A stretch of 64,000 nt of DNA from an uncultured Chloroflexia bacterium (GTDB taxonomy: Bacteria; Chloroflexota; Limnocylindria; Limnocylindrales; CSP1-4): the NCBI GenBank assembly GCA_963777975.1, contig CAVZSO010000010.1:118847-182846 (forward strand), given 5' to 3'. Position numbers and translations under genes: made by a program. The number at the start of each line of letters is the position of its first letter. Position 1 is the first letter of the stretch. Under the pieces are notes generated by a model that saw only the letters and a list, made by a program, of their open reading frames with translations, did no database searches and had not been told where the DNA came from. Below, in pieces: positions 32,560 to 64,000 of the stretch.

Positions 32560-32669
32560 CCTACTCGACGTCCGCTGAAGTAACCGGTATGGACATCTAC
32601 ACCGGTTTCGTCTACGATGCCTCGACGATCGAGTCCGTCCCATCTCGACCGCACACGGAGCCCAGCGTG

Positions 32670-33716
32670 ATGCCTGCCAGATCCTCCTCGCCAGCCCTCC
32701 TGTGGATCGTCTTCATCGCCCTCGCCTTCGCCTGGGGCAGCTCGTACTTCTTCATCAAGGTCGGCATCGACAGCGGCCTCCAGCCGCTCACGCTCGTGGC
32801 CTGGCGACTGACCATCGGCATCCTCGGGTTGCTCGTGCTGCTGCGTCCGACGCGTTCGCGCGTTTCGCGCGAATGGCGCGTGCTGGCGCGGATCGCCGTC
32901 ATGGGCATCTTCTACGTCGCCGTCCCGTTCATGCTCATCACCTGGGCCGAACAGTCGATCGGCTCCGCCCTGGCGACCATCCTCCAGGCCCTGACGCCGC
33001 TCTTCGCCCTCGTCATCGCTGCACTCGTCCTGGAGGAGGAGCCGGTCACCATCAACAAGCTCGGCGGCCTCGTCCTCGGGTTCGGTGGTGCCGTCGTCAT
33101 CCTGGCACGACACCTGGCACCCGTGACCGGCGCTGATCCGACATCGGGGCTGACCGGGGAGCTGGCCCTCATCCTGTCCTGCGTCTCCTACGCCGGTGCG
33201 GCCGTCTTCCAGCGGCGCGCGATCGGCTCGCGGCCGCTCATCGATGACCCACTCGTCGGCCGGCGAGCGCTGCGGCCGCTGGAGATCGCGCTGCCCCAGA
33301 ACGTCGTCGCGCTGGCCATCGTCCTGCCGCTGGCCCTGATCTTCGAAACGGGCGCCGGCCTGCCGGTCCCGCCCGACGCCACCGCCTGGCTCAGCGTCGT
33401 CTGGCTGGGCTTGGTCGGTTCGGCCATCGCCTACCTGCTCTACTACCGCTTGCTCAACGCCTGGGGCGCCTACCGTGCCTCGCTCATCACCTACGCCATG
33501 CCGGTCGTCGGCATCCTGCTCGGCGTCCTGGTCCTCAACGAGATCATCGACCTGCAGACCCTCGTCGGCACGGCCATGGTCATCGGCGGCATCGCGCTGG
33601 CCAACGCACCGTTCGGTCGCCGCGTCATCTACCGCCGCGGACGGCGGCCGCCGGCGACCATCCTGCCCGCGCCGACGAGCGACGCGATCGCCAGGCAGGT
33701 GCCGGCCATCGACTGA
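32670..33716 (+). CDS. DMT superfamily (EamA-like) transporter
   Basis: 348 aa, two EamA-like halves (FAWGSSYFFIKVG...; AIAYLLYYRLLNAWGAY). Confidence 0.65.
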   Translation: MPARSSSPALLWIVFIALAFAWGSSYFFIKVGIDSGLQPLTLVAWRLTIGILGLLVLLRPTRSRVSREWRVLARIAVMGIFYVAVPFMLITWAEQSIGSALATILQALTPLFALVIAALVLEEEPVTINKLGGLVLGFGGAVVILARHLAPVTGADPTSGLTGELALILSCVSYAGAAVFQRRAIGSRPLIDDPLVGRRALRPLEIALPQNVVALAIVLPLALIFETGAGLPVPPDATAWLSVVWLGLVGSAIAYLLYYRLLNAWGAYRASLITYAMPVVGILLGVLVLNEIIDLQTLVGTAMVIGGIALANAPFGRRVIYRRGRRPPATILPAPTSDAIARQVPAID

Positions 33717-33858: not shown

Positions 33859-34341
33859 ATGACACGGGCCGCGACCATCGCCCGCAGGTCGCGGACCGCA
33901 GCGACCGAGCCCGTGACCGCGCGGCTCGTGCGCGCGCTCGATGACGCCGATGTCCGGGTGACCGAGCCTCGACGCGTCGTCCTGGAGCTCGTCGCGGCGC
34001 GCGGCGGCGGCCACTTCGCCGCGGCCGACCTGGTCAGCGATGCCCGGATCCGGGGCATCCACATCGGCCGGGCGACCGTCTTCCGGACGCTCGATCTGTT
34101 CCTGGCCAGCGGCATCATCGAGCGCCTCGACCTGCCCGACGGTGAGCACGCCTATGTGGCCTGCGGCCCGAGCCACCATCACCACGTCATCTGTACCGTC
34201 TGTGGGCGGTCGACGGACGTCGACGATGGCGACCTGCGGGCCGTCACGGCCGCCGTCGAGCGGGCGACGGGCTACGCCATCGACGGTCACCGACTCGAGC
34301 TCTACGGTCGCTGCCCGATCTGCCGGGGCGGCAGGGCGTGA
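33859..34341 (+). CDS. zur: Fur family regulator, probable zinc uptake regulator
   Basis: Winged helix, HHHHVICTVCG...CPICRG zinc sites. GTGA-coupled to the downstream ZIP transporter. Confidence 0.6.
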   Translation: MTRAATIARRSRTAATEPVTARLVRALDDADVRVTEPRRVVLELVAARGGGHFAAADLVSDARIRGIHIGRATVFRTLDLFLASGIIERLDLPDGEHAYVACGPSHHHHVICTVCGRSTDVDDGDLRAVTAAVERATGYAIDGHRLELYGRCPICRGGRA

Positions 34342-35111
34342 GCCCGCTCGTCGTCCTCTTCGCGCTCCTGCCGGTCGTCAGCACGTTCCTCGGCGGCCTG
34401 GCGGTCTTCCGCCTGCGCCACCGATTGCACCCGGTGATGGCGTTCTCGGCCGGCATCCTGGTGGCCACCGCGCTGGTCGACCTGATGCCGGAAGCCCTCG
34501 AGCTGGTCGAAGCCGCAGAGCCGGCGCTGATCGTCGGCGTGGCGGCGCTGGTGGGCTTCCTGCTCTTCTCGGCGGTCGAGTCGTTCGTTCACCGCTCGAG
34601 CTACGAGCACGAGCACGAGCCTGGCGTCGACCCGCACCTGCCCCATGACCACGCCCACCGCCAACCGACCACCCGCATGGGCATCATCGGACCGCTCGGG
34701 CTGGTCGTCCACTCGGCCCTCGATGGCGTCGCCATCGGCCTCGGGTTCGCGGCCAGCGCCGAGGTCGGCATCGTCGTCGGGCTGGCGGTCATGGCCCACG
34801 ACTTCGCCGACGGCATCAACATCACGACGCTCGCCCTGGAGGGCGGCGGCAGCCGGCGGACGGCACTGACCCTGCTGGCCATCGATGCCGTGGCGGCACC
34901 CGTCGGCGCGTTCATCGGCATCACCTTGGGCGTGTCGACAGCTGTGCTGGGCATCCTGCTGGCGGTCTTCGCCGGCGTGTTCGTGGCCATCGGGGCCGGG
35001 CACCTGCTGCCCGAGGCGCAGCATCAGCGGCCGCTCCAGGCGCCGCCGCTCGTCGTCCTGGCCGCTCTTGGCGCACTCCTGGTCGTGACCATCAGGCTCC
35101 TCGCGGCCTAG
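34338..35111 (+). CDS. zupT: ZIP family metal (zinc) transporter
   Basis: HSALDGVAIGLGF, HDFADGINITT, His-rich loop HEHEPGVDPHLPHDHAH. Confidence 0.75.
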   Translation: MSPLVVLFALLPVVSTFLGGLAVFRLRHRLHPVMAFSAGILVATALVDLMPEALELVEAAEPALIVGVAALVGFLLFSAVESFVHRSSYEHEHEPGVDPHLPHDHAHRQPTTRMGIIGPLGLVVHSALDGVAIGLGFAASAEVGIVVGLAVMAHDFADGINITTLALEGGGSRRTALTLLAIDAVAAPVGAFIGITLGVSTAVLGILLAVFAGVFVAIGAGHLLPEAQHQRPLQAPPLVVLAALGALLVVTIRLLAA

Positions 35112-42767: not shown

Positions 42768-43061
42768 ATGTTACTCTACGGTCACATGATCGGCACCGTC
42801 GACACCCGTCTGGACGTACTGGCGCATGCGGTCTCCGATGCCACCCGCCGACGGATCATCGAGCGCTTGCGCGTCGATCCCGGGGTGACCACGGCAGATC
42901 TGGCGGCGCTGGCCCCGAGCATGACGCGCTTCGCGGTCATGAAGCACCTCGACGTGCTCAGGCGGTCGGGGCTGGTGCGCTCCATGGACGAGGGGCGCCG
43001 GCGGCGGCATTACCTCGAACCCGCCGCCCTCGAGCCGTTGCGCGACTGGCTCGGCGCCTGA
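42768..43061 (+). CDS. ArsR/SmtB family transcriptional regulator (no metal-binding Cys motif)
   Basis: LAHAVSDATRRRIIERL...TADLAALAPSMTRFAVMKHLDVLRRSGLV HTH pattern. Confidence 0.5.
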   Translation: MLLYGHMIGTVDTRLDVLAHAVSDATRRRIIERLRVDPGVTTADLAALAPSMTRFAVMKHLDVLRRSGLVRSMDEGRRRRHYLEPAALEPLRDWLGA

Positions 43062-52492: not shown

Positions 52493-53572
52493 ATGAACCA
52501 CACGATTCGCACCACGACCCTGCCCCGCCGCGCCCGTCTCGCTGGCCTTGCGGCAGCCAGTCTCATGCTGGTCAGCGCCTGCGCCACCGGGGGGAGCTCG
52601 CCAGCCGCGAGCACGGGGACATCATCCGAGCCAACCCCGACGACGGCAGCGTCCGGGGCCGCGGGCCTCGAGGGCACCATCGCCATCTCGGGCTCATCGA
52701 CGGTCCAGCCCATCACGTCGGCCATCGCGGAGGCCTTCAACGGCACCAATCCTGACGTTGCGATCTCGGTCGACGGACCGGGCACCGGTGACGGCTTCAA
52801 GCTCTTCTGCGCCGGGTCGATCGACATCAGCGACGCCTCGCGCACGATCAAGGACGAGGAGGCCGCGCTGTGCAAGACGGCCGGCATCGACTACATCGAG
52901 CTCAAGATCGCCATCGATGGCATCTCCGTGCTGACGTCGACGGACAACACCGCGGTCGCCTGCCTGTCGTTCGCCGACTTGTACGCGCTCATCGGCGAGC
53001 AGTCCAAGGGCTTCAAGACCTGGGCCGACGCGCAGCCACTGGCCAAGGAACTCGGCTCGAACACGACGTTCCCGAGTGGCTCCCTCGACATCTTCGGTCC
53101 CGGCGAGGAATCGGGCACCTACGACAGCTTCATCGAACTGGCCCTCAAGACGATCGCCGTCGCCCGAGGTCAAACGGGCACGGCCACCCGCCCCGACTAC
53201 ACCTCGTCGGCCAACGACAACGCGATCATCGATGGCATCGCCAATTCGGCGACCTCGCTGGGCTGGGTGGGCTTCGCCTATGCCGAGGAGAACAAGGACA
53301 AGGTCGGCGAGATCGCCGTCTCCAAGGACCCCAACGGCACGTGCGTGTCGCCGAATGCCGAGACGATCGCGAGCGGCGAGTATCCGCTGTCGCGTGCCCT
53401 GTACATCTACGTCAACAAGGCCAAGCTCGCCGACAACGCCGCCCTGGCGCCGTTCGTCGACTACTACCTGGCTGATGGCACCATCTCGACGGCACTCGAG
53501 ACGGTCCCCTACATCAACCTCGCGCCAGAAGAGCTAGCCAAGACCGTGGCGACCTGGACCGGCAGCCACTGA
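52493..53572 (+). CDS. pstS: phosphate ABC transporter substrate-binding protein
   Basis: Lipoprotein-like signal LAGLAAASLMLVSACA; GSSTVQP, DGPGTGDGF. Confidence 0.85.
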   Translation: MNHTIRTTTLPRRARLAGLAAASLMLVSACATGGSSPAASTGTSSEPTPTTAASGAAGLEGTIAISGSSTVQPITSAIAEAFNGTNPDVAISVDGPGTGDGFKLFCAGSIDISDASRTIKDEEAALCKTAGIDYIELKIAIDGISVLTSTDNTAVACLSFADLYALIGEQSKGFKTWADAQPLAKELGSNTTFPSGSLDIFGPGEESGTYDSFIELALKTIAVARGQTGTATRPDYTSSANDNAIIDGIANSATSLGWVGFAYAEENKDKVGEIAVSKDPNGTCVSPNAETIASGEYPLSRALYIYVNKAKLADNAALAPFVDYYLADGTISTALETVPYINLAPEELAKTVATWTGSH

Positions 53573-53600
53573 TCGTCGTCTTGGATACGTCCTCTTCCCT

Positions 53601-53634
53601 CCGAGGCCGGACTCCCATCCTGGGTCTCGGCCTC
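53601..53634 (+). terminator. GC-rich hairpin (CGAGGCCG...CGGCCTCG, extendable) between pstS and pstC; candidate intra-operon attenuator/processing stem-loop (no U-tract)
   Basis: Seen directly: 8-bp perfect arms with additional flanking pairs and an 18-nt loop. Confidence 0.4.
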
Positions 53635-53669
53635 GCCCTCCTGCCGGTGACGCGAGGCCAAGCTGACCG

Positions 53670-54611
53670 ATGACCGCGAGCTCAGGCGCGATACCCGTCG
53701 CGCCACGGCCGCACCTGACGGGGTCGCCCACGCGACGCCGCAACGAGCGGATCGTGCGTTCCGTCTTGTTCCTTGCGGCGCTCGTATCGATCCTCATCTC
53801 CGCGTTCATCGTCCTGAGCATCATCGGTCAGGCGTTCAGCTTCCTGGCCCAGATCGACCTGTCCCAGCTGACCGCCGAGGGGTGGTTCCCACGTCGCGGC
53901 CTGTTCGGGATCTCGACGCTCATCGTCGGATCGCTCCTGGTGACCGGCATCGCCATCGTCATCGCAGCACCGGTCGGCATCGCGTCCGCGATCTACCTCG
54001 CGGAGTACTCCGGTCCGCGGACACGCGGCATCGTCAAGCCCATCCTGGAGATCCTGGCAGGCATCCCGAGCGTCGTGCTCGGTTTCTTCGCGCTCACGGT
54101 CATCACGCCAAAGGTCATCCAGGTCTTCTTCCCGACTGCCAACGGCTTCAACCTGCTGGCGGCCGGCATCGGCGTCGGCATCCTGACCATCCCGCTCATC
54201 GCGACCATCTCGGAGGACGCCATGCGCGCCGTGCCTCACTCGCTCCGGGAGGGGGCCTACGGCCTGGGCGCACGGCGCGCCACCGTCAGCCTGCGCATCG
54301 TGGTACCGGCGGCCATCTCGGGCATCGTGGCCGCGCTCATCCTCGGCATCTCGCGCAGCATCGGCGAGACGATGGTCGTGGCGCTCGCGGCGGGCGCGTC
54401 CGGTGGCACGCTGTTCACGACGAACGTCCTGGGACCCGGCCAGACGGTGACCGCCGCGATGGCGGCCCTGGCCACGGGCTCCGACCAGGTGACTGGCAAC
54501 ACGGCGGCCTTCCAGAGCCTCTTCTTCCTGGGCCTGATGCTCTTCCTGGCGACCCTCGGCCTGAACGTCCTCGGCGACGCCTTCGTGCGTCGGACGCGGC
54601 AGCGCTACTGA
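53670..54611 (+). CDS. pstC: phosphate ABC transporter permease PstC
   Basis: 313 aa; EAA-like loop and typical PstC TM pattern. Confidence 0.85.
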   Translation: MTASSGAIPVAPRPHLTGSPTRRRNERIVRSVLFLAALVSILISAFIVLSIIGQAFSFLAQIDLSQLTAEGWFPRRGLFGISTLIVGSLLVTGIAIVIAAPVGIASAIYLAEYSGPRTRGIVKPILEILAGIPSVVLGFFALTVITPKVIQVFFPTANGFNLLAAGIGVGILTIPLIATISEDAMRAVPHSLREGAYGLGARRATVSLRIVVPAAISGIVAALILGISRSIGETMVVALAAGASGGTLFTTNVLGPGQTVTAAMAALATGSDQVTGNTAAFQSLFFLGLMLFLATLGLNVLGDAFVRRTRQRY

Positions 54612-54619
54612 GCCGCGCG

Positions 54620-55552
54620 ATGACCACCGTCGCACCGCCCGTATCAGCCCAGGCGGCCACCTCGATCCCACTTGGTGAGCACCGCCGGAACGTGGGCGGC
54701 CTGACGTTTCACGTGCTGCTGCTCATCGCACTGCTCTTCTCGCTGGGCGTGCTCGCGACGCTCGTGATCAGCGTCCTGATCGGCGGTCTGCCGGTCCTCA
54801 TGGAGCGCGGGCTCGACTTTCTGACCAGCCCGACGTCGGCCAACCCGAACAAGGCCGGCGTCGTGCAAGGCATCATCGGCTCGCTCATCATGACCGCGAT
54901 CGTGGCCCTGGTCGCCATCCCGCTGGGCATCATGACCGCCATCTACCTCGAGGAGTACGCGCCCGCGAGCCGGCTCTCGCGCTTCATCGACATCAACATC
55001 CGCAACCTGGCCGGCGTGCCCTCGATCGTCTACGGCCTCCTCGGCTTCACGGTCTTCGTGACGGTCCTGGCACCAGTGACTGGCGGCACGACCATGCTGT
55101 CGGCAGGGCTGACGCTTGCCGCACTCGTGCTGCCCATCGTCATCATCGCCTCGGCCGAGGCTATCCGGTCGGTGCCGCACGAGCTTCGCGAAGGTGGCTA
55201 CGGGATCGGCGCCTCGCGCTGGCAGGTGACCCGAGAGCTCGTCCTGCCGGCGGCCATGCCGGGGATCCTGACGGGTACCATCCTGGCCCTCGCGCGGGCG
55301 ATCGGCGAGACGGCTCCCCTGCTGCTCGTGGGCGCGGTGCTGGGCTACTTCTCGAGTGGTAGCCAGGGGCCCCTCGAGCAGCTGTTCGGCAAGTTCACGG
55401 CCTTGCCGACCCTCATCTACGACTGGGCTCGGCGCCCCCAGAGCGAGTTCAGGGACCTGACCTCGGCCGCTATCATCGTGTTGCTGGTGATCACGCTCTT
55501 TGCCACCGCGGTCTCCATCTACCTCCGCAACAGGTACCAGAAGAGATGGTGA
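54620..55552 (+). CDS. pstA: phosphate ABC transporter permease PstA
   Basis: 310 aa; follows pstC. Confidence 0.85.
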
Positions 55553-56442
55553 TGCAAGAGGACCTGACGGTGACGCACGACGACCCGATGGTCGCGCCCA
55601 GCGAGGCGCCAGGGCACGGTTCCGCGACGATGACATCACCGCGACTCTCGCCCGAGGTCTTCGGGGCGGCTGTGGCCGTCGAGCCCATCATCAGACTCGT
55701 GGACGTCTCCATCTGGTACGGGCTCTTCCGGGCCGTGCGCGGCTTCTCGGCGGAGATCCCGGCCAATCGGGTGACGTCCCTCATCGGTCCGTCGGGCAGC
55801 GGGAAGTCCACGTTGCTCCGGTCGATCAACCGCATGAACGACCTGATCCCTGGCGCCCGATTGGAGGGTGGCGTCCTCTATCACGGACAAGACCTCTACG
55901 GCGCCGGCATCGATGCGGTCGAGGTTCGTCGGCGCATCGGCATGGTCTTCCAGAAGCCCAACCCATTCCCCAAGTCCATCTACGACAACGTCGCCTTCGG
56001 CCCGCGGCTGAGCGGCTTCAAGGGAGACCTCGACGGGCTCGTCGAGACCAGCCTCCGCCGCGCCGCGCTGTGGGACGAGGTCAAGGACAAGCTCAAGTCG
56101 TCCGGCCTCGCACTCTCGGGCGGCCAGCAGCAGCGCCTGTGTATCGCCCGCGCCATCGCCACCGAGCCAGAGGTCATCCTGATGGACGAGCCGTGCTCGG
56201 CGCTGGACCCGCGGGCCACGCTCCAGATCGAGGAGCTGATGCGGGATCTCAAGGAGCGCTACACGATCGTCATCGTGACCCACAACATGCAGCAAGCGGC
56301 ACGCGCATCGGACCGCACCATCTTCATGACTATGGGCGAGGATCGGGCCGGCTACGTCGTCGAGGCCGACGAGACGAACCGCATCTTCACGCAGCCGGCC
56401 AACCAGCTGACCGAGGACTACGTGTCGGGACGCTTCGGATGA
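55546..56442 (+). CDS. pstB: phosphate ABC transporter ATP-binding protein
   Basis: [35 protein letters not shown]. Confidence 0.85.
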
Positions 56443-57182
56443 GCGAGCTCGAACGGGGCTCCGGCGCCGTGCCCGTCGAGGCCAGCAACGAAGGGCCCAG
56501 CCACGAGCCCTCGCCGCGGGCCGACATCGCGCGCTCGCCGCTCGACCGGGAGATGCGCGAAGCCAAGGATGGCGTGCTGCGCATGGGCTCGATGGTCGAG
56601 ATCCAGATTCGCAAGGCCCTCGAGGCACTCGTCGCGCACGACGAGGCGGCGGCCACGGCGGTCATCATCGGCGACCGGCGCATCAACGAGGTCCAGGTCG
56701 AGGTCTCCAACGTCATCACCACGGCCATCGCGACCCAGGGTCCGGTCGCGCGCGACCTGCGCTTCCTGCTGACGCTCGACCACGTGACCTACGAGCTGGA
56801 GCGGATGGGCGACCACGCATCGTCGGTCGCCAAGCAGGCCCGCAAGCTGGCGCCCTTCCCTCCGCTCAAAGGCTATGTCGACCTGCCCCGCCTGGCCTCC
56901 CTGGTCGCCGATCAGGTCAGAGGCATCCTCCATGCGCTGGTCGACATCGACGTCGAGCGCGCTCGAACGGTGGCAGCCGTCGATGACGAGATCGACACCC
57001 TCTATCACCACATCTTCGATCAGGTCGTCGAGCTCATGCGCGCGAACCCCGACAACGTCGATCGTGGCACGCGCATCCTCTTCGCCGCGCATTACCTCGA
57101 GCGCATCGGCGACCGGGTCACGAACATCGCCGAGGACATCGTCTTCCTGGCCTCAGGGCAGATCGAGGACCTCAACCCCTGA
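56439..57182 (+). CDS. phoU: phosphate signalling complex protein PhoU
   Basis: Two PhoU repeats with conserved ExxxD motifs ([22 protein letters not shown]). ATGA overlap with pstB. Confidence 0.8.
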
Positions 57183-57614
57183 CGACGACCGCTCGACCCG
57201 CTCGTGTCCTGTTCGCCTGCGTGGCGAACTCGGCACGGAGCCAGATGGCCGAGGCCCTGCTGGCCGCTCGGGGCGGCGCCAGCTTCACGCCGGCCAGCGC
57301 GGGTGTCGTGGCCAGCCGCGTCCACCCGCTCACGATCGCGGTCCTGGCGGAGCTGGGGATCGACTGGTCAAGGGCCACCTCGAAGGCGCTGGCGCCGATG
57401 CTCGAGCACGACTGGGACCTGGTGGTGACGGTCTGCGATGAGGCGGTCGAGGCCTGCCCCTACATCCCGCCACCGACCCGCGTCCTGCACTGGTCGTTCG
57501 ACGACCCGGCTGCCGCGACCGGCAGGCGACGCGCAACGGCTGACGACCTTTCGACGCGTTCGCGACGAGATCGCCACGCACATCGATGCCCTCGTCGAAA
57601 CGGAGACGCGATGA
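57179..57614 (+). pseudogene. arsC: LMW-PTP-type (thioredoxin-coupled) arsenate reductase with an apparent +1 frameshift near 57520-57545 and a non-canonical CTG start overlapping the phoU stop
   Basis: RVLFACVANSARSQMAEALL (CX5R P-loop), VVTVCDEAVEACPYIP (Cys pair). After DPAAATG the +1 frame continues TFRRVRDEIATHIDALVETETR*. The first in-frame ATG/GTG would delete the catalytic Cys. Confidence 0.55.
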
Positions 57615-58088
57615 CCGAGCTGCTCATGCTGCGCCACGCCCACGCCGGCGATCCGATGGCCTGGACCAAGTCCGACGACATCCGACCGCTGTCCAAGAAG
57701 GGCCGCGACCAGGCGGCCCGCATGGCCACCTTCCTGGCTGCGAGCCGGGGTCCGGCCCGACGTCATCGTCTCCAGCCCGAAGGCCCGAGCGATGCAGACG
57801 GCCACGCCAGTCGCCGACGAGCTGGGCCTGAAGGTGCGAGTCGACGAGCGCCTGGCCGAACCCTTCGGCCTGGCCGAGATCGAGGCGTTGCTCGTCGACC
57901 TGGGCGACCCGGAACGCCCGATGCTCGTGGGCCACGATCCTGACTTCACGTCGCTCGTTGCCGTCCTCTGCCACGCGCCATCGGTGCCCATGCGCAAGGG
58001 AGCCCTGGTGCGCATCGACGCGCCACGGCCACTGTGTCCCGGGTGCGGCACGCTGCGCTGGTTGGTGCCGCCGGAGCTGCTGCCCTAG
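57611..58088 (+). pseudogene. sixA: SixA-like phosphohistidine phosphatase (histidine phosphatase superfamily) with an apparent +1 frameshift near 57748
   Basis: MTELLMLRHAHAG (RHG motif)...ATFLAAS in one frame. The +1 frame continues VRPDVIVSSPKARAMQTATPVADELGL...LVGHDPDFTSL. ATGA overlap with arsC. Confidence 0.55.
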
Positions 58089-58091
58089 CGA

Positions 58092-58447
58092 CTAGGCGGG
58101 CAGGACCGGCAGCCGCCGTCCCGCCAACGCCTCGCCACGAGCGCGGTCGAGCGCCGTGCCCGGGCTGGCCGGGGTCAGCTCGCGTGCCAACCGAGCCAGC
58201 CGCTCGACAGCGGCGGGCTCGAGGGCGTAGTAGATCCAGGTGCCCCGCCGCTCTGCGGTCACGACACCCGCCTCTCGCAGGACGCGCAGGTGGTGGGAGA
58301 CCGTCGGCTGCGATCGGTCGATCCCGACGGTCAAGTCGCAGGCACACGTCTCCAGTTCGACGGCCAGCTGGCGCACGATGGCCAGGCGCATCGGATCGGC
58401 CAGCGCGTGGAGCAGCCGCGCATCTGGATCGGCCTCTCGTGTCACCC
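58092..58447 (-). CDS. arsR: arsenite-responsive ArsR family repressor
   Basis: GTG start. LLHALADPMRLAIVRQLAVELETCACDLTVGIDRSQPTVSHHLRVLREAG carries the ELCVCDL-type As(III)-binding Cys pair (ETCACDL). Confidence 0.65.
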
Positions 58448-58471
58448 CGCTATAATATCCATCATCGTCTA

Positions 58472-58489
58472 TATTGACAACTATCAATA
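58472..58489. promoter_or_regulatory. inverted repeat TATTGA-CAACTA-TCAATA in the AT-rich divergent arsR / lysE-arsM promoter region; candidate ArsR operator
   Basis: Seen directly. Overlaps a minus-strand -35 TTGTCA (17 nt from -10 TATTAT), consistent with leaderless arsR. A plus-strand TATAAT sits at 58451-58456. Confidence 0.4.
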
Positions 58490-58509
58490 CAGCCAGTAGG
58501 GTCACCGGC

Positions 58510-59127
58510 ATGACGAATGTCATCATCGCCGGGATCGTGGCCGGCCTCGGTGTCGCCATCCCGGTCGGCGCCATCGCCGTCCTGATCATCGAGACCACGG
58601 TTCGCCATGGCTTTCGTGTCGGCTGGGCCGGTGGCGCGGGGGCCGCCACGGTCGATGGCGGCTACGCGCTGCTGGCCGCGTTCTTCGGCACCGCTGTCGC
58701 CGCCGTCCTTGCGCCCTGGACGGTGCCTCTGCAGCTCATCTCCGTCGGGCTCCTGGTTGCCATCGCGATGCGTGGGCTGTTGGCATTGCGCCGGCCGCCC
58801 GAGGCGGACATCGGGCAAGACCCGCCGACGATGCGCCGCGCCTACCTGCTGATCCTCGGCTTGACCGCCATCAACCCGCTCACCGTCACCTACTTCGTGG
58901 CGCTCATCCTGGGATTGCCGTCGCTTGCCCAGGACCCCGGCTCCCGCGTCGTCTTCGCGGCCTCGGCGTTCGCCGCCTCGCTGGCCTGGCAAACGTTCAT
59001 CGCCGGTGTCGGGGCCGTCGTCCATCACACAGCGTCGACGCGGATCCGGACCCTGACCTCGATCCTCGGCAGCCTGATCATCCTGGGCCTGGCCGGGCTG
59101 ATCCTCGTCGACCTCGTCCAGTCATAG
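58510..59127 (+). CDS. LysE/RhtB family exporter
   Basis: 206 aa, 6 TM; IIAGIVAGLGVAIPVGAIAVLIIETTVRHGFRVGWAGGAGAATVDGGYALLAAF is the typical LysE N-terminus. The upstream TTG-initiated ORF start at 58474 was rejected. Confidence 0.55.
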   Translation: MTNVIIAGIVAGLGVAIPVGAIAVLIIETTVRHGFRVGWAGGAGAATVDGGYALLAAFFGTAVAAVLAPWTVPLQLISVGLLVAIAMRGLLALRRPPEADIGQDPPTMRRAYLLILGLTAINPLTVTYFVALILGLPSLAQDPGSRVVFAASAFAASLAWQTFIAGVGAVVHHTASTRIRTLTSILGSLIILGLAGLILVDLVQS

Positions 59128-59186
59128 CCATGTCAGCCAACGCCCTGCCATCAAGGCGCGGGCGAGGAGCAGAAGGAGCACCGACC

Positions 59187-59954
59187 ATGACCACCATCCC
59201 GACCGCCGCCGACGAGCTGACCGAGTCCGTCCGAAGTCACTACGCCCGCACCGCCTTGAGCGTGCTCGAGTCGAGCGACGCGACGGCAGCTTGCTGTGAC
59301 GATGGCTGCTGTGGCGGCACGGACGCTCGATGGGGCGCCACCCTCTACGACCTCAGGGATCGCACGTCGCTGCCCGATGCCGCGGTGCTGGCCAGCCTCG
59401 GCTGCGGGAACCCGACCGCGATCGCCGACCTGCAGGAAGGCGATCGCGTCCTCGACCTGGGTTCCGGAGGCGGCATCGATGTCCTGCTCTCGGCCCAGCG
59501 TGTCGGCTCGGCCGGGCGTGCCTTCGGCCTCGACATGACGGACGAGATGCTCGCACTCGCCCAGCGCAATGCCGCCGACGCCGGAGCCACGAACGTCGAG
59601 TTCCTGAAGGGGCGCATCGAGGCCATCCCACTGCCCGCGGGATCGATCGACGTCGTCATCAGCAACTGCGTCATCAACCTCTCCGCCGACAAGCCGGCGG
59701 TCCTGGCCGAGATGGCGCGCGTCCTGCGGCCCGGTGGACGGATCGGCATCAGCGACGTCGTCGCCGACGACGCGCTCGAGCCCGAGGAGCGCGCGCGGCG
59801 CGGCAGCTTCGTCGGCTGCATCGCCGGCGCACTCTCGTTCCACGAGTATCGGCACGGCCTCGAGGCCGTCGGCTTCGCCGACATCGCGGTGACGGCGACG
59901 CACGCCGTGGCCGACGGGATGTGGTCGGCCATCATCACCGCCGTTCGGGCCTGA
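59187..59954 (+). CDS. arsM: arsenite S-adenosylmethionine methyltransferase (ArsM/AS3MT family)
   Basis: SLGCGNPTAIADL, VLDLGSGGGIDVLLSAQRVG, GLDMTDEMLALAQRNA, NVEFLKGRIEAIPLP, DVVISNCVINLSADK, VGCIAGAL. Near-identical motif order to characterised ArsM; the N-terminal Cys pair CCDDGCC is present. Confidence 0.8.
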   Translation: MTTIPTAADELTESVRSHYARTALSVLESSDATAACCDDGCCGGTDARWGATLYDLRDRTSLPDAAVLASLGCGNPTAIADLQEGDRVLDLGSGGGIDVLLSAQRVGSAGRAFGLDMTDEMLALAQRNAADAGATNVEFLKGRIEAIPLPAGSIDVVISNCVINLSADKPAVLAEMARVLRPGGRIGISDVVADDALEPEERARRGSFVGCIAGALSFHEYRHGLEAVGFADIAVTATHAVADGMWSAIITAVRA

Positions 59955-59995
59955 TCCCTCGGACCTCTGTGGCGGATCCCCGGGGCCCCGCCTGG

Positions 59996-60661
59996 CTAAG
60001 GGGCTCCATCCAGCGGGCGACCCTCGACGCAGACCACCTGGACGCCGAGCCGCTCCAGGCGTCGAACGGTCACCTCGCGACGGACCGTGAAGGCGGCCAG
60101 CTCGAGCCCGGCCTCGCGGACGATCCGCACCGAGCTCGGGCTGATGGACCGCCACTGAGCGGCGATCCCGCGGCACCCGAGCGACCGGGCGCGCTCGACG
60201 ACGCCGGCGTCGAGCCAGTCGCTGTTCAGCCAACGCGGCCACCGGGGGAGGCGTCGCGCGACCGCGACCAGGGCATCGGGCAGGTAGGACGACACCACGG
60301 CATCGGCAGGCTGAGGTCCTCGTGCCGCCTCGAGCAGGCGCGCGACCGTCGCGTTTGGCGTGACCTTCAGCTCGACGTCGAGGAACGCCGTCGACGGCAG
60401 GGCGGCGAGCACATCGGCCAGCGTGGGCACCCCGTAGCTCGCGAGGACGCCCGTTTCGGCCCCGACGACCGGGCCGTCGACGCCCTGGACACGCGTCAGC
60501 GACGGATCATGGATGACGACCGGCGTTCCGTCGGCGGCCAGGTGGACGTCGAACTCGAGCCCGTCGGAGCGAGCGGCCCGCGTGCCCGCGATCAGCGCCG
60601 CGAGGCTGTTCTCGGGCGCCGATCGCCAGTCGCCACGATGCGCCAGCCGCAGGATGCGCAT
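59996..60661 (-). CDS. ugpQ: glycerophosphodiester phosphodiesterase
   Basis: RLAHRGDWRSAPENSLAA, LEFDVHLAADGTPVVIHD. Confidence 0.7.
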   Translation of the reverse strand: MRILRLAHRGDWRSAPENSLAALIAGTRAARSDGLEFDVHLAADGTPVVIHDPSLTRVQGVDGPVVGAETGVLASYGVPTLADVLAALPSTAFLDVELKVTPNATVARLLEAARGPQPADAVVSSYLPDALVAVARRLPRWPRWLNSDWLDAGVVERARSLGCRGIAAQWRSISPSSVRIVREAGLELAAFTVRREVTVRRLERLGVQVVCVEGRPLDGAP

Positions 60662-60699
60662 CGGCGGCGTGCCCGATGACGTACCGGGCTCGACCGCCA

Positions 60700-61473
60700 T
60701 CAGGCGCCGATCTCGAGCTCGGCCAGGATGCCTCGGTGGTCGGAGGGGAAGAGGGTCGGGTCATCGACATCCGGCCGATCGAAGGCCAGGCGGGCCGAGC
60801 GCACCCTGACCAGGGCGCTGACCCAGACATAGTCGAGGCAGCGAGGCTGGCCATCGGTGTCCATGGCCGGCGCCTGGAGCCCGGACGGCCAGGTCACGTC
60901 GGGCTCGGCGCCATTCGCCTCTCGATAGGCGGACCGGAATCCGCCGTCGATCATGCGGCCATAGGTCGGTTCGAGCGGATCGGCATTGAAGTCGCCGGTC
61001 ACGATCGTGGCATCGGCAGCGGGCAGCCCCGACAGCCAGGTCAGCAGCGCATCGGCCTGCGCGGCCCGGATCTGGTCGTGCTCGTCACCGATCATGTGAT
61101 GGAGGTGCGTGTTGACGAGGCGCACGTGCAGCCCGTTCCCGAGCTGCAGCTCGGCCCGGCCGGCGCTCCGTTCAAAGCCCAGTGCCAGGCGATCGGCGTC
61201 GTCCGCCGGCGCCAGCCCGTCGGCCATCGGACGGCGGACCAGGATGCTGTTGCCGGCCTCATCGGGCCGGTAGGCCCAGGCGCGCCGGATGGCATAGTGG
61301 CCTTCGCCCGAGGCTGCCAGCAGCCGGTCCTGCTGCATGACGTAGACCGCCTCCTGGAGCCCTGCGACGTCCGGCTGGAGCGCCGCGAACTCGGCCAGCA
61401 GCAGCGGCAGGCGCTCCGGCCAGCGGTCCGCCATGTTGAGGATGTTGAGGGTCAGGACTCGGAGCGTCGGCAT
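60700..61473 (-). CDS. endonuclease/exonuclease/phosphatase (EEP) family protein
   Basis: LRVLTLNILN, GLQEAV, VNTHLHH, VTGDFNADP, PSDHRGILAEL. Confidence 0.65.
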   Translation of the reverse strand: MPTLRVLTLNILNMADRWPERLPLLLAEFAALQPDVAGLQEAVYVMQQDRLLAASGEGHYAIRRAWAYRPDEAGNSILVRRPMADGLAPADDADRLALGFERSAGRAELQLGNGLHVRLVNTHLHHMIGDEHDQIRAAQADALLTWLSGLPAADATIVTGDFNADPLEPTYGRMIDGGFRSAYREANGAEPDVTWPSGLQAPAMDTDGQPRCLDYVWVSALVRVRSARLAFDRPDVDDPTLFPSDHRGILAELEIGA

Positions 61474-61490
61474 CGTCGGACTCCCATGCG

Positions 61491-63077
61491 TCAGGCAGGC
61501 ACGAGTCGGCGCTCGAGGTTCTCGACCTCGAACCTGGCCAGCTCTCGAGCGACGCGTTCGGCATCCCAGCCCAGGCGCTCGACCGCGATGGCGGCGACCG
61601 CCTCGGCAGCCTCGCGACCGAGGTCGGGCCCGAAGCCCAGCATCAGACGACGGAGCACGATGTCGCCGAGCGTCTGCGCCCACTCGACGCCGATGGCGTG
61701 GGCGACCTCGGCGCGCAGCGCATCGCCGACCGGCAGCAGCGGCAACGACCACCAGCCGTCGGCGTCGGCGATGGCGCTGACCTCGGCAGCGCGAGCGCCG
61801 TAGATCCGCCACAGGCGGTGGGCGTACGGGCCGGCGGCGGCCGTCGGCTCGGGCGGCAAGGCCAGCGAGCCGACATCGGTGTCCGCGAGCGCGTGTCGAT
61901 CGCGTCGGTCGAGCAGCTCGTCGACGACTTCGGCGGCGATGGAACGCCAGGCGGTCAGCTTGCCACCGGCGACCGTCGTCAGGCCCGGTGCACCGTCGCG
62001 CGCGTGGTCCACCAGGAGATGCCGCCGCGAGACGCGGTTGGCGAGGCCCGACTCACGGACGAGCGATCGAACGCCGACGCTGCCCCAGAGCGGCTCCATG
62101 GCGTTCGACGCCGGCAGCACGCGGTTCGCGCCGCGCACGAGGTAGGCCACTTCTTCGGGCGTCACGCTGGCATCGTCCGGTCCACCGGGCACGTCGCGCT
62201 CGGTGGTGCCGATCATCGTCATGCCTTGCCAGGGGACCGCGAAACAGAGGCGCCGATCATCGGGATGCTCGAAGGCCACGGCATGCTCGGCCAGCCGCGG
62301 ATAGACGATGTGGATGCCCTGGACGAGGCGCAGCAGCGGTCGAGCCTCGAGGCCCATGCCGGCCAGGGTCGCGTCCGCCCACGGGCCGGTGGCGTTGATG
62401 GTCCGCCCGGCCATGACCGTCGCCGAGACCCCATCCAGCGTGCCGCTGAGCTCGACACCGACGACCCGCCCGCCGCCGTCACGGCGCAGGCCCGTCGCGG
62501 CCGTGTGGTTGCGCACCTCGGTGCCGGCCTCCTGCGCGGCGCGCAGGGCGTCGAGCACGAGGCGCTCGGGCAGCTCGACCTGGGCGTCCCAGTAGAGCGC
62601 GGCCTCGCTCAGTCGATCCGTCGAGAGGCCCGGCTCGATGGCCGCCGCGGCGGTGCGGCTCATGAACCGGTGTCGCGGCATCGAGCGGCGTGGGGACAGC
62701 AGGTCGTAGAGCGTCAGGCCGGCCCGGAGGCGCAGTCGGTGCCAGAGCGGCTCGTGGTAGAAGGGCAGGATGAAGGGCAGCGGCGTGACCAGGTTGGGCA
62801 TCCGTCGAAGCTGCCAGGCGCGCTCTCGCAGCCCCTCGCGAACGACGCCGATGTCGTAGTTGGCGAGGTACCGGAGGCCGCCGTGGATGAGCCGCGTGGA
62901 GCGGGCCGTGGTGCCCCAGGCGAAGTCTCGGCGCTCCACGAGCAGGGTCGACAGGCCGCGCCGCGAGAGCTCCTTGGCCACGCCTGCGCCGAGGATGCCG
63001 CCACCGATGACGACCGCGTCGACCCTGGACCCGTCGAGCCCGGCCACGCCCGAGGTCGTGACCCGGTCGACGCTCAC
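61491..63077 (-). CDS. glpD: FAD-dependent glycerol-3-phosphate dehydrogenase
   Basis: DAVVIGGGILGAGVAKELSRRG (FAD Rossmann), LIHGGLRYL. Proposed GTG start overlapping the glpK stop (GTGA). Confidence 0.75.
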   Translation of the reverse strand: MSVDRVTTSGVAGLDGSRVDAVVIGGGILGAGVAKELSRRGLSTLLVERRDFAWGTTARSTRLIHGGLRYLANYDIGVVREGLRERAWQLRRMPNLVTPLPFILPFYHEPLWHRLRLRAGLTLYDLLSPRRSMPRHRFMSRTAAAAIEPGLSTDRLSEAALYWDAQVELPERLVLDALRAAQEAGTEVRNHTAATGLRRDGGGRVVGVELSGTLDGVSATVMAGRTINATGPWADATLAGMGLEARPLLRLVQGIHIVYPRLAEHAVAFEHPDDRRLCFAVPWQGMTMIGTTERDVPGGPDDASVTPEEVAYLVRGANRVLPASNAMEPLWGSVGVRSLVRESGLANRVSRRHLLVDHARDGAPGLTTVAGGKLTAWRSIAAEVVDELLDRRDRHALADTDVGSLALPPEPTAAAGPYAHRLWRIYGARAAEVSAIADADGWWSLPLLPVGDALRAEVAHAIGVEWAQTLGDIVLRRLMLGFGPDLGREAAEAVAAIAVERLGWDAERVARELARFEVENLERRLVPA

Positions 63078-64000
63078 CGCGGCCGGCTCCGTGTCCGCTC
63101 CACGGCGTCGGCCCAACGGGCACGCTCAGCGGCTCGACGGGCCGCCGGCATCGCTGGCTCGAACCGAGCTGGGGTACCGACCAGGGCCGACAGCTCGGCA
63201 TCGTCCGCCCAGAGGCCGACGGCTCGACCGGCCAGCAGGGCGGCGCCGAGGGCCGTCGTCTCGGGGATGGCGGCTCGCTCGACGGGCCGGCCGAGCAAGT
63301 CCGCCTGGATCTGGAGCAGCAGGTCGTTGGTCGAGGCGCCGCCGTCGGCCCGCAACGTGGCAAGGTGCGGGGCGCCGCCGTTCTCCAGCGCCTCGACCAG
63401 ATCGACGACCTGGTGAGCGATGGCGTCGAGGGTCGCACGAGCGAGATGGGCGCGGGTCGTGCCTGCAGTCATGCCCGTGATGGTGCCACGCGCCTCGGCA
63501 TCCCAGTGCGGAGCTCCGAGACCGGCGAATGCCGGCACGAAGACGACGCCGGCGCTGTCGGGCACGGAGCCCGCCAACACCTCCACGTCGCCGGCGGCCT
63601 CGATGATGCCCAGGCCGTCTCGCAGCCAGCGGACGGCCGACCCTGCCACGAAGACGCTGCCCTCGATGGCATAGGCGACGTCGGCGTTGCCAGCGCCTGC
63701 GATGCGGCGCTGCCAGGCGACCGTGGCCAGCAGGCCGGCGGGCGGCTCGGGCACCATGGCGCCCGTCGTTTCGAGCAGGAAGCAGCCGGTGCCGTAGGTG
63801 TTCTTGGCCTCGCCGGGGCCCAGGCACAGCTGGCCGAAGAGCGCCGCCTGCTGGTCCCCGACCGCGGCTGCGATCGGGATCGGCGCGCCGAAGTGGGTCG
63901 GCTCGGTCATCCCGAAGCCGGCGTCGGTGGCTCGAACCTCGGGCAGCGCGGCCACCGGGATACCGAAGAGCTCGAGCTGCTCCGCCGACCAGGTCCTTGA
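63074..64000 (-). CDS. glpK: glycerol kinase, C-terminal portion (N-terminus beyond window end)
   Basis: NTYGTGCFLL, GSVFVAGSAVRWLRD, GGASTNDLLLQIQADLLGRPV; the upstream reading continues past 64000. Confidence 0.8.
   Translation of the reverse strand, partial: SRTWSAEQLELFGIPVAALPEVRATDAGFGMTEPTHFGAPIPIAAAVGDQQAALFGQLCLGPGEAKNTYGTGCFLLETTGAMVPEPPAGLLATVAWQRRIAGAGNADVAYAIEGSVFVAGSAVRWLRDGLGIIEAAGDVEVLAGSVPDSAGVVFVPAFAGLGAPHWDAEARGTITGMTAGTTRAHLARATLDAIAHQVVDLVEALENGGAPHLATLRADGGASTNDLLLQIQADLLGRPVERAAIPETTALGAALLAGRAVGLWADDAELSALVGTPARFEPAMPAARRAAERARWADAVERTRSRPR

Follow-up and report, generated by a model that had tools for sequence, protein, structure and literature searches.

A 64-kb stretch of DNA from a soil Chloroflexota bacterium of the Limnocylindrales (the whole analysed stretch is called the window below) contains a three-gene arsenic module at 58092-59954. 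In it arsR faces a two-gene pair made up of a LysE-family gene, here called lysE, and arsM; we write this arrangement as arsR<>lysE-arsM. The window has a G+C content of 70%, and its proteins have their nearest database relatives among entries labelled Candidatus Limnocylindrales, Chloroflexota. The sequence makes a firm case for a regulon of the ArsR type: a conserved operator lies across two divergent promoters, with lysE as first and arsM as second cistron. On this evidence lysE is almost certainly regulated by ArsR. We propose that the LysE-like protein is an arsenical efflux permease that works without cysteines, in an ArsR-controlled and arsenite-inducible module, and we would give this proposal an even chance of being right. 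The case for export is strengthened by the predicted co-regulation, by purifying selection on lysE, and by the retention of arsR<>lysE after arsM was deleted in one lineage. A preliminary description of this DNA had named the three genes, given their coordinates and noted their divergent layout, all of which is borne out; Pfam and NCBIfam profiles and matches in the PDB support the gene identities.

The spacer between arsR and lysE is 64 bp long. It holds a putative ArsR operator at 58467-58488, GTCTAT ATTGAC aact ATCAAT, whose three half-sites make up a pair of overlapping palindromes with the central ATTGAC in common. The preliminary description had placed an inverted repeat at 58472-58489. 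That repeat is real, since a repeat search returns arms at 58469-58477 and 58484-58492 with 89% complementarity, but it is the right-hand dyad of a larger operator with three half-sites. ATTGACNNNNRTCNAT has a single occurrence in the window (58473-58488), where 0.04 would be expected from shuffles. The orthologous intergenic regions keep GTCAATATTGAC-N4-GTCAAT. Of 70 unrelated arsM loci from metagenomes, 34 have the motif ATTGAC-N4-RTCNAT in the 600 bp ahead of arsM. The motif occurs a single time in the window and has no match in 334 kb of control loci around LysE paralogues. This means that the operator motif belongs to the ArsR/arsM system and not to LysE genes. Among relatives of the locus, the operator is found in L049, in the arsR<>lysE-arsM loci and in the loci with an arsM stub that are described below, while L045 has no match. 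As a separate observation, the dyad ATTGAC-N4-GTCGAT, often as the longer ATATTGAC-N4-GTCGATAT, is widespread upstream of arsM and beside arsR in soil metagenome contigs (34 of the loci L039-L118). It marks ArsR-controlled arsM promoters in many of these contigs and could serve as a motif for regulon searches.

Each of the divergent genes has its own promoter. The arsR promoter lies on the minus strand at 58452-58480, with a -35 of TTGTCA (58480-58475), a 17-nt spacer and a -10 of TATTAT (58457-58452). A promoter scan gives it as the sole sigma-70-like site in 57900-60300 (10/12 matches, against 0.2 expected). Its -35 lies within the dyad, and 6 nt separate its -10 from the GTG of arsR, a spacing that is kept in orthologues. 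The lysE-arsM promoter lies on the plus strand at 58474-58502, with a -35 of TTGACA (58474-58479), a 17-nt spacer and a -10 of TAGGGT (58497-58502). It was read from the sequence; the promoter scan was too stringent to return it. The ATG of lysE follows 7 nt after this -10. The same pattern, TTGACA-17-TAGnnT with a start codon 6-7 nt on, recurs in L029, L030, L033 and L122. The inverted repeat had been said to overlap the -35 of arsR. It does overlap TTGTCA (58480), but arsR is not alone in this, since the -35 hexamers of both divergent promoters are covered. We infer that one bound ArsR dimer or tetramer could block both of them. Since the start codons of arsR and lysE come 6 and 7 nt after their -10 hexamers, both messenger RNAs are probably leaderless. 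The arsM gene begins 59 bp after lysE and has a Shine-Dalgarno sequence of its own; the analysis found no terminator.

The repressor gene arsR (58092-58445, minus strand) encodes a 117-aa ArsR/SmtB-family protein from a GTG start. It matches PF01022 HTH_5 with 49.2 bits against a cut-off of 22, and NF033788 HTH_metalloreg with 94.5 bits against a cut-off of 55. Its CxC pair, Cys34 and Cys36 in ETCACDL, had been taken for an As(III)-type site, and this stands: a BLASTP alignment to E. coli K-12 ArsR (44% identity) puts C34/C36 opposite C32/C34. The residues T33-C34-A35-C36-D37-L38 are unchanged in 6 orthologues. The third R773 ligand, Cys37, is not present, and Thr39 takes the position of EcArsR Cys37. 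Induction of R773 ArsR does not need Cys37; its replacement therefore lowers strict membership in the R773 type but not the likely function. The protein does not have N-terminal cysteines of the kind required by a CadC-type alpha-3N site. Based on the conserved dyad over both -35 hexamers, we predict that this ArsR occupies the operator at its own promoter until As(III) releases it.

The methyltransferase is as bona fide as the preliminary description had it. The gene arsM (59187-59954, plus strand) encodes an As(III) S-adenosylmethionine (SAM) methyltransferase of 255 aa, counted from ATG 59187. The reading frame is open from 59130, and ATG 59130 was considered as the start, but ATG 59187 is the probable one because AAGGAG lies 8 nt upstream of it and orthologues start there. 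The protein scores 285.2 bits against NF008823 'arsenite methyltransferase' (cut-off 263), and its best PDB matches are the arsenite methyltransferases 5evj and 4fs8. All four catalytic cysteines are present. With numbering from 59130 these are Cys55 (CC), Cys92 (GCGNP), Cys180 (SNCVINL) and Cys230 (GCIAGA), and together with the SAM motif VLDLGSGGG they are unchanged in 6 orthologues. GCGNP and SNCVINL align to Chlamydomonas ArsM. We take the four cysteines to correspond to C44, C72, C174 and C224 of CmArsM.

The unusual gene of the module, lysE (58510-59127, plus strand), encodes 205 aa from ATG 58510 to TAG 59127. It is the first cistron behind the operator and a putative arsenic-responsive exporter. 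An ORF finder gave TTG 58474 as its start. This was rejected, as that TTG is the -35 hexamer within the promoter and orthologues start at the ATG. The protein matches a single Pfam family, PF01810, with 48.4 bits against a gathering score of 25.6, over positions 3-184 of 193. The sole NCBIfam match is the L-lysine exporter equivalog TIGR00948, at 24 bits and thus far below the cut-off of 213.65. The AlphaFold model is all-helical with a pLDDT of 78. Conserved family positions are kept at Asp49, Arg88, Asn122-Pro123, Trp160-Gln161 and His172. There is no cysteine residue in the protein. Neither a PDB sequence-profile search with the protein nor a Foldseek search with its model (E <= 0.001) returned a match. 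With no LysE-family structure in the PDB, structure gives no information on the substrate.

The ars-linked LysE proteins form one clade in a neighbour-joining tree, and one residue marks them. All 37 ars-linked sequences have Trp39, and so does P0052. In the other 77 LysE sequences this position is mostly Ala, and Trp is never among the four commonest residues there. The change from Ala to Trp falls within a conserved GxAAGAGAA helix, and the clade also has a DPPTMRR loop. The LysE protein of the lineage without arsM carries Trp39 as well. Ratios of nonsynonymous to synonymous substitution (dN/dS) are 0.19-0.50 for lysE and 0.12-0.34 for arsM, which indicates that lysE is under purifying selection.

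How far is lysE tied to arsM in other genomes? The linkage put forward in the preliminary description holds only within one Limnocylindrales clade with shared synteny. Every orthologue checked at 60-100% identity has arsR<>lysE-arsM (L029, L030, L031, L033, L034, L038, L120 and L124; the LysE homologues examined at or above 60% were P0005, P0014, P0023, P0024, P0033, P0035 and P0038). Upstream of arsR these orthologues differ: the DNA there is pst-phoU-arsC-sixA in some, while others have a molybdopterin oxidoreductase or an inserted two-component system. At or below 54% identity the linkage is absent from paralogues, and the sole exception is the arsM-stub lineage, which carries a 54%-identical lysE orthologue and keeps arsR<>lysE. 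No ars genes lie near the LysE homologues P0039, P0079, P0099 and P0111 (49-54% identity). As a negative control, 28 LysE paralogue loci from GTDB (39-48% identity) have neither arsM nor arsR in the vicinity, and no neighbour family recurs among them. P0111 groups with P0052 in the neighbour-joining tree and was considered as a second ars-linked outlier. It was rejected, since it lies beside an arginase gene with no ars genes; the grouping is probably long-branch attraction. A plasmid search gave two Streptomyces LysE genes, which were uninformative.

The survey was also run from the side of arsM. Across 80 other metagenome arsM loci (54-75% identity) no LysE-family ORF was found, using our own LysE profile, which recovered all positive controls, and Pfam on the 216 nearest ORFs. 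A LysE gene beside arsM is thus as unusual as first supposed. The accompanying idea, that lysE occupies a slot normally held by an efflux pump, does not survive. In related loci arsR usually stands directly against arsM, and pumps are uncommon there. The ORFs nearest arsM (two on each side in the 80 loci) include 34 ArsR, 10 low-molecular-weight protein tyrosine phosphatase (LMW-PTP) ArsC, 6 EamA, 4 Acr3/SBF and 3 MIP. By this comparison, lysE is an insertion into an arsR<>arsM module, an extra cistron between promoter and arsM, and not a pump replacement; its link to arsM is, on the sequences compared, rare and confined to one syntenic Limnocylindrales clade. It must be noted that EamA-family (DMT) genes beside arsM outnumber Acr3/SBF by 6 to 4 neighbour ORFs in these loci (L039-L118, for example L039:5818-6756). 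One scanned EamA neighbour resembles exporters of carboxylates, amino acids and amines. EamA transporters may be another unrecognised type of arsM-associated exporter.

The same syntenic locus exists in three states. The first is phoU-arsC-sixA-arsR<>arsM without lysE (L045, L049). The second is arsR<>lysE-arsM, as in the clade of the window. In the third (L122, L123), a 40-codon stub of arsM comes after arsC-arsR<>lysE, and GDPD-EEP comes next. L122 comes from an NCBI metagenome-assembled genome and L123 from an independent read set, and in both lysE and the operator are intact after the deletion of arsM. Three states at one locus imply that a single ArsR-controlled promoter carries lysE and arsM as cargo that can be separated.

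Some small ORFs at these loci deserve mention. In one subclade a 54-56-aa ORF (MNLTLPLLASALR...) lies between the ArsR-controlled promoter and lysE, with its stop overlapping or abutting the lysE start (L124:3833-3997, L125:877-1041, L038:4834-5004). A 12-codon remnant is present at L031:4965-5003, and the window lacks the ORF. In L045 the space between arsR and arsM holds an unrelated ORF of ~70 aa whose product ends in DCCPA.

We propose the following scenario. ArsR, with its two-cysteine R773-type site, would bind GTCnAT-ATTGAC-N4-RTCnAT and thereby cover the -35 hexamers of the back-to-back promoters. It would repress its own gene and the lysE-arsM operon until trivalent arsenic releases it. 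The neighbouring ArsC would reduce arsenate that enters via the adjacent Pst system, and ArsM would methylate the As(III). The co-transcribed LysE-family protein would act as an arsenical exporter driven by the proton-motive force, with either As(III) or the methylated product as its substrate and with no cysteine ligands. That lysE was kept with arsR and arsC once arsM was lost favours As(III), or at least a substrate that is independent of ArsM. Methylated species are possible too, given that in most lineages lysE is predicted to be co-transcribed with arsM. One can go further and ask if the whole Trp39-marked, ars-linked clade is an unrecognised class of cysteine-free arsenical efflux permease, which replaces or complements ArsM as the effector of the ArsR regulon. 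We put this broader idea forward tentatively, at somewhat less than even confidence.

Several points weigh against arsenical export. The LysE family is known for the export of amino acids. A protein with no cysteine would not recognise arsenicals by the thiol mechanism of ArsP or Acr3, and this leaves the chemistry of arsenical recognition unexplained. The nearest LysE paralogues have non-arsenic neighbours, such as MarR/MFS, arginase or DUF3307, and the neighbours vary in the 28 GTDB loci. No LysE gene turned up in the 80 other arsM loci. The ars-linked copies all share the downstream synteny GDPD-EEP-glpD-glpK, so the association may reflect one vertically inherited insertion and not repeated selection. 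The arsM stub of L122 is still recognisable, and the deletion may be too recent to prove that lysE is useful on its own. An Acr3 or ArsB may be encoded elsewhere in the genome. The case for arsenical export by the LysE protein is one of sequence and genome comparison.

Alternatively, the LysE-like protein may export a non-arsenical metabolite that is raised by arsenic stress or by SAM-dependent methylation. Cysteine, O-acetylserine, homocysteine or another amino-acid-like compound would be candidates, and lysE would be regulated by ArsR with no transport of arsenic. Characterised LysE/RhtB members do export amino acids and related metabolites, the only NCBIfam match, weak as it is, is to an L-lysine exporter model, and one LysE paralogue adjoins arginase. 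The lack of cysteine fits as well. The EamA metabolite exporters among the arsM neighbours (6 ORFs in the 80 loci) hint at a recurring need for export beside arsM. We nevertheless consider this scenario unlikely. A role tied to the SAM turnover of ArsM is hard to reconcile with L122 and L123, where lysE was kept with arsR and arsC after arsM was deleted. The module has no genes for thiol or amino-acid biosynthesis. The clade-specific change from Ala to Trp in the GxAAGAGAA helix suggests a shift in substrate.

One can also imagine that lysE is a hitchhiker, an ordinary amino-acid exporter that was inserted once between the ArsR promoter and arsM and has been inherited with its syntenic block, with no role in arsenic handling. 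The linkage is limited to one clade with shared downstream synteny, and it is missing from both the 80 other arsM loci and the 28 GTDB paralogue loci. The sister lineages L045 and L049 manage with arsR<>arsM alone. This does not sit well with the position of lysE as the first cistron directly behind the operator and promoter, where arsM expression has to run through it. The arrangement persists to ~40% protein divergence despite at least three rearrangements upstream of arsR. Purifying selection acts on lysE, and the gene outlived arsM. An amino-acid exporter induced by arsenic only would be an odd regulatory design. We therefore regard a mere passenger as improbable. A last scenario, in which ArsR senses a non-arsenic soft metal or thiol-reactive compound and the LysE-like protein exports that or a related compound, is very improbable: although alpha-3 CxC regulators of the ArsR/SmtB family include Cd/Pb/Zn sensors, the LysE superfamily includes CadD-type metal exporters, and this ArsR has two cysteines only, with Thr for the Cys37 of R773, this operator-ArsR pair goes with arsM in 34 of 70 loci and with arsC in the window and in L122, the N-terminal cysteines of a CadC-type alpha-3N site are lacking, and the Pfam match is to LysE proper with no other family reported.

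Arsenical efflux by the LysE-like protein can also be judged by comparison with known systems. The module resembles the canonical arsR-arsM and arsRBC operons (E. coli R773 and chromosomal ars) in its alpha-3 CxC ArsR, its four-cysteine ArsM and a nearby ArsC. A palindromic operator overlapping the promoter and autoregulation are shared too, here as predictions from the sequence. It differs in that its membrane component is a 205-aa LysE-family protein and not ArsB, Acr3, ArsP, ArsK or ArsJ. It also differs in having lysE as the first cistron ahead of arsM, an ArsR without the third cysteine, and divergent, overlapping promoters that are apparently leaderless.

Amino-acid exporters of the LysE/ArgO/RhtB type (PF01810, TC 2.A.75-76) are the obvious relatives of the protein, which has their Pfam match, a length of ~200 aa, an all-helical model and the family positions. 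Unlike them, it is under predicted ArsR control, is predicted to be co-transcribed with arsM, has Trp39 and the DPPTMRR loop, and stays below the cut-off of the L-lysine exporter equivalog. It lies outside the known arsenical efflux families ArsB, Acr3/SBF, ArsP, MFS ArsK/ArsJ and GntP-type ArsQ. ArsP is a DUF318-type permease with a Cys pair, and ArsK and ArsJ are MFS transporters.

The closest parallel in layout is the arsQML arsinothricin operon of Burkholderia gladioli. That operon is As(III)-inducible, its permease gene directly precedes arsM, and the permease exports the arsenical product (PMC8552651). Both systems thus have a non-canonical permease gene immediately 5' of arsM. We considered ArsQ as a LysE-like precedent and rejected it, as ArsQ has 408 aa and is GntP-related, not LysE (PMC8552651). 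The radical-SAM enzyme ArsL, which is required there, is absent here. The ArsM of the window scores 131 bits against a cut-off of 500 on the arsinothricin ArsM model and matches the generic arsenite methyltransferase model instead. Reviews list ArsB, Acr3, ArsP, ArsK, ArsJ, ArsG, ArsQ and ArsW as arsenical permeases (PMC9144182). The postulated role of the LysE-like protein, the removal of trivalent or methylated arsenicals within an ars operon, is like that of the organoarsenical permeases ArsP, ArsK, ArsG and ArsW (PMC9144182). In the literature we could read, LysE is not among the families listed as arsenical permeases, and we found no link of it to arsM, arsR, arsenite or an ars operon, only incidental matches. 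This suggests that LysE is a transporter family not so far linked to arsenic. That suggestion would fall if ArsW, which the papers citing it describe as a methylarsenic efflux protein, proved to belong to the LysE family.

An associated gene, arsC (57185-57614, plus strand), lies outside operator control and directly 3' of phoU. It encodes a putative LMW-PTP, thioredoxin-type arsenate reductase. Of the features of the pI258 type, a CX5R P-loop and a Cys82/Cys89 pair, the motifs CVANSARS and C-x6-C can be read from the sequence. The score against TIGR02691 arsC_pI258_fam is 80.7 bits with a cut-off of 174.3, and it was obtained with a frame-broken ORF. Compared with L029 and L030, the window has a 1-nt insertion near 57525 that breaks the frame. 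There is no canonical start upstream of the catalytic Cys, since the window and L029 have ACG where L030 has ATG. A SixA-like histidine-phosphatase gene follows (57611-58088, plus strand). Its ATG overlaps the arsC stop (ATGA), and it converges on arsR with a 3 bp gap. A DNA alignment with L029 and L030 shows a 1-nt insertion near 57742 that breaks this frame too. The intact L029 orthologue scores 65 bits against TIGR00249 sixA (cut-off 74.5). The two insertions could be errors of long-read assembly, as sister contigs such as L038 also have broken genes, or the early decay of arsC. The sixA-like gene, translationally coupled to arsC, stays beside arsR/arsM across relatives, lysE-less lineages included. 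It adjoins arsR in L045, L047, L049 and L120 as well, and a sixA-like gene is further noted in L029, L030 and L033.

Upstream of the ars genes lies pstSCAB-phoU (52493-57182). Downstream (59996-64000) are genes for a glycerophosphodiester phosphodiesterase and an EEP-family phosphatase/nuclease, followed by glpD and glpK. Relatives also carry a two-component system (L033, L120) or PHO4 and PhoU_div (L122) at the locus. The ars genes thus look like part of a phosphate-starvation neighbourhood, which fits the entry of arsenate through Pst. At some orthologous loci a Fer4-NrfD-molybdopterin oxidoreductase is encoded directly upstream of arsR (L031:1-4507, L124:1-3208, L038:382-3262). Its catalytic subunit belongs to the Psr/Phs/Arr clade, with 330 bits for PhsA and 249 bits for ArrA, both far under the cut-offs.

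The preliminary description had found no ArsB, Acr3 or ArsP, and this is true for the 64-kb window, which has no gene of these types. E. coli ArsB used as a query has no match in the window, and neither do the Acr3/SBF ORFs from beside other arsM genes. Elsewhere in the window, 32589-33713 encodes an EamA-family transporter and 33859-35108 a Fur-family regulator with a ZIP zinc transporter behind it; another small regulator, of the ArsR/HTH_20 type, lies at 42768-43058.

The way in which methylated arsenicals, notably DMAs(V) and TMAsO, exit bacterial cells is not well understood. Arsenical permeases have been listed one family after another: ArsB, Acr3, ArsP, ArsK, ArsJ and ArsQ. If our reading is right, a LysE-type carrier under ArsR adds a small cysteine-free transporter family to that list. 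The Trp39 clade would then account for the disposal of As(III) or methylated arsenic by these Limnocylindrales in the absence of Acr3, ArsB and ArsP. At the very least, lysE is a testable candidate in the Limnocylindria, an abundant uncultured lineage of soil and freshwater.

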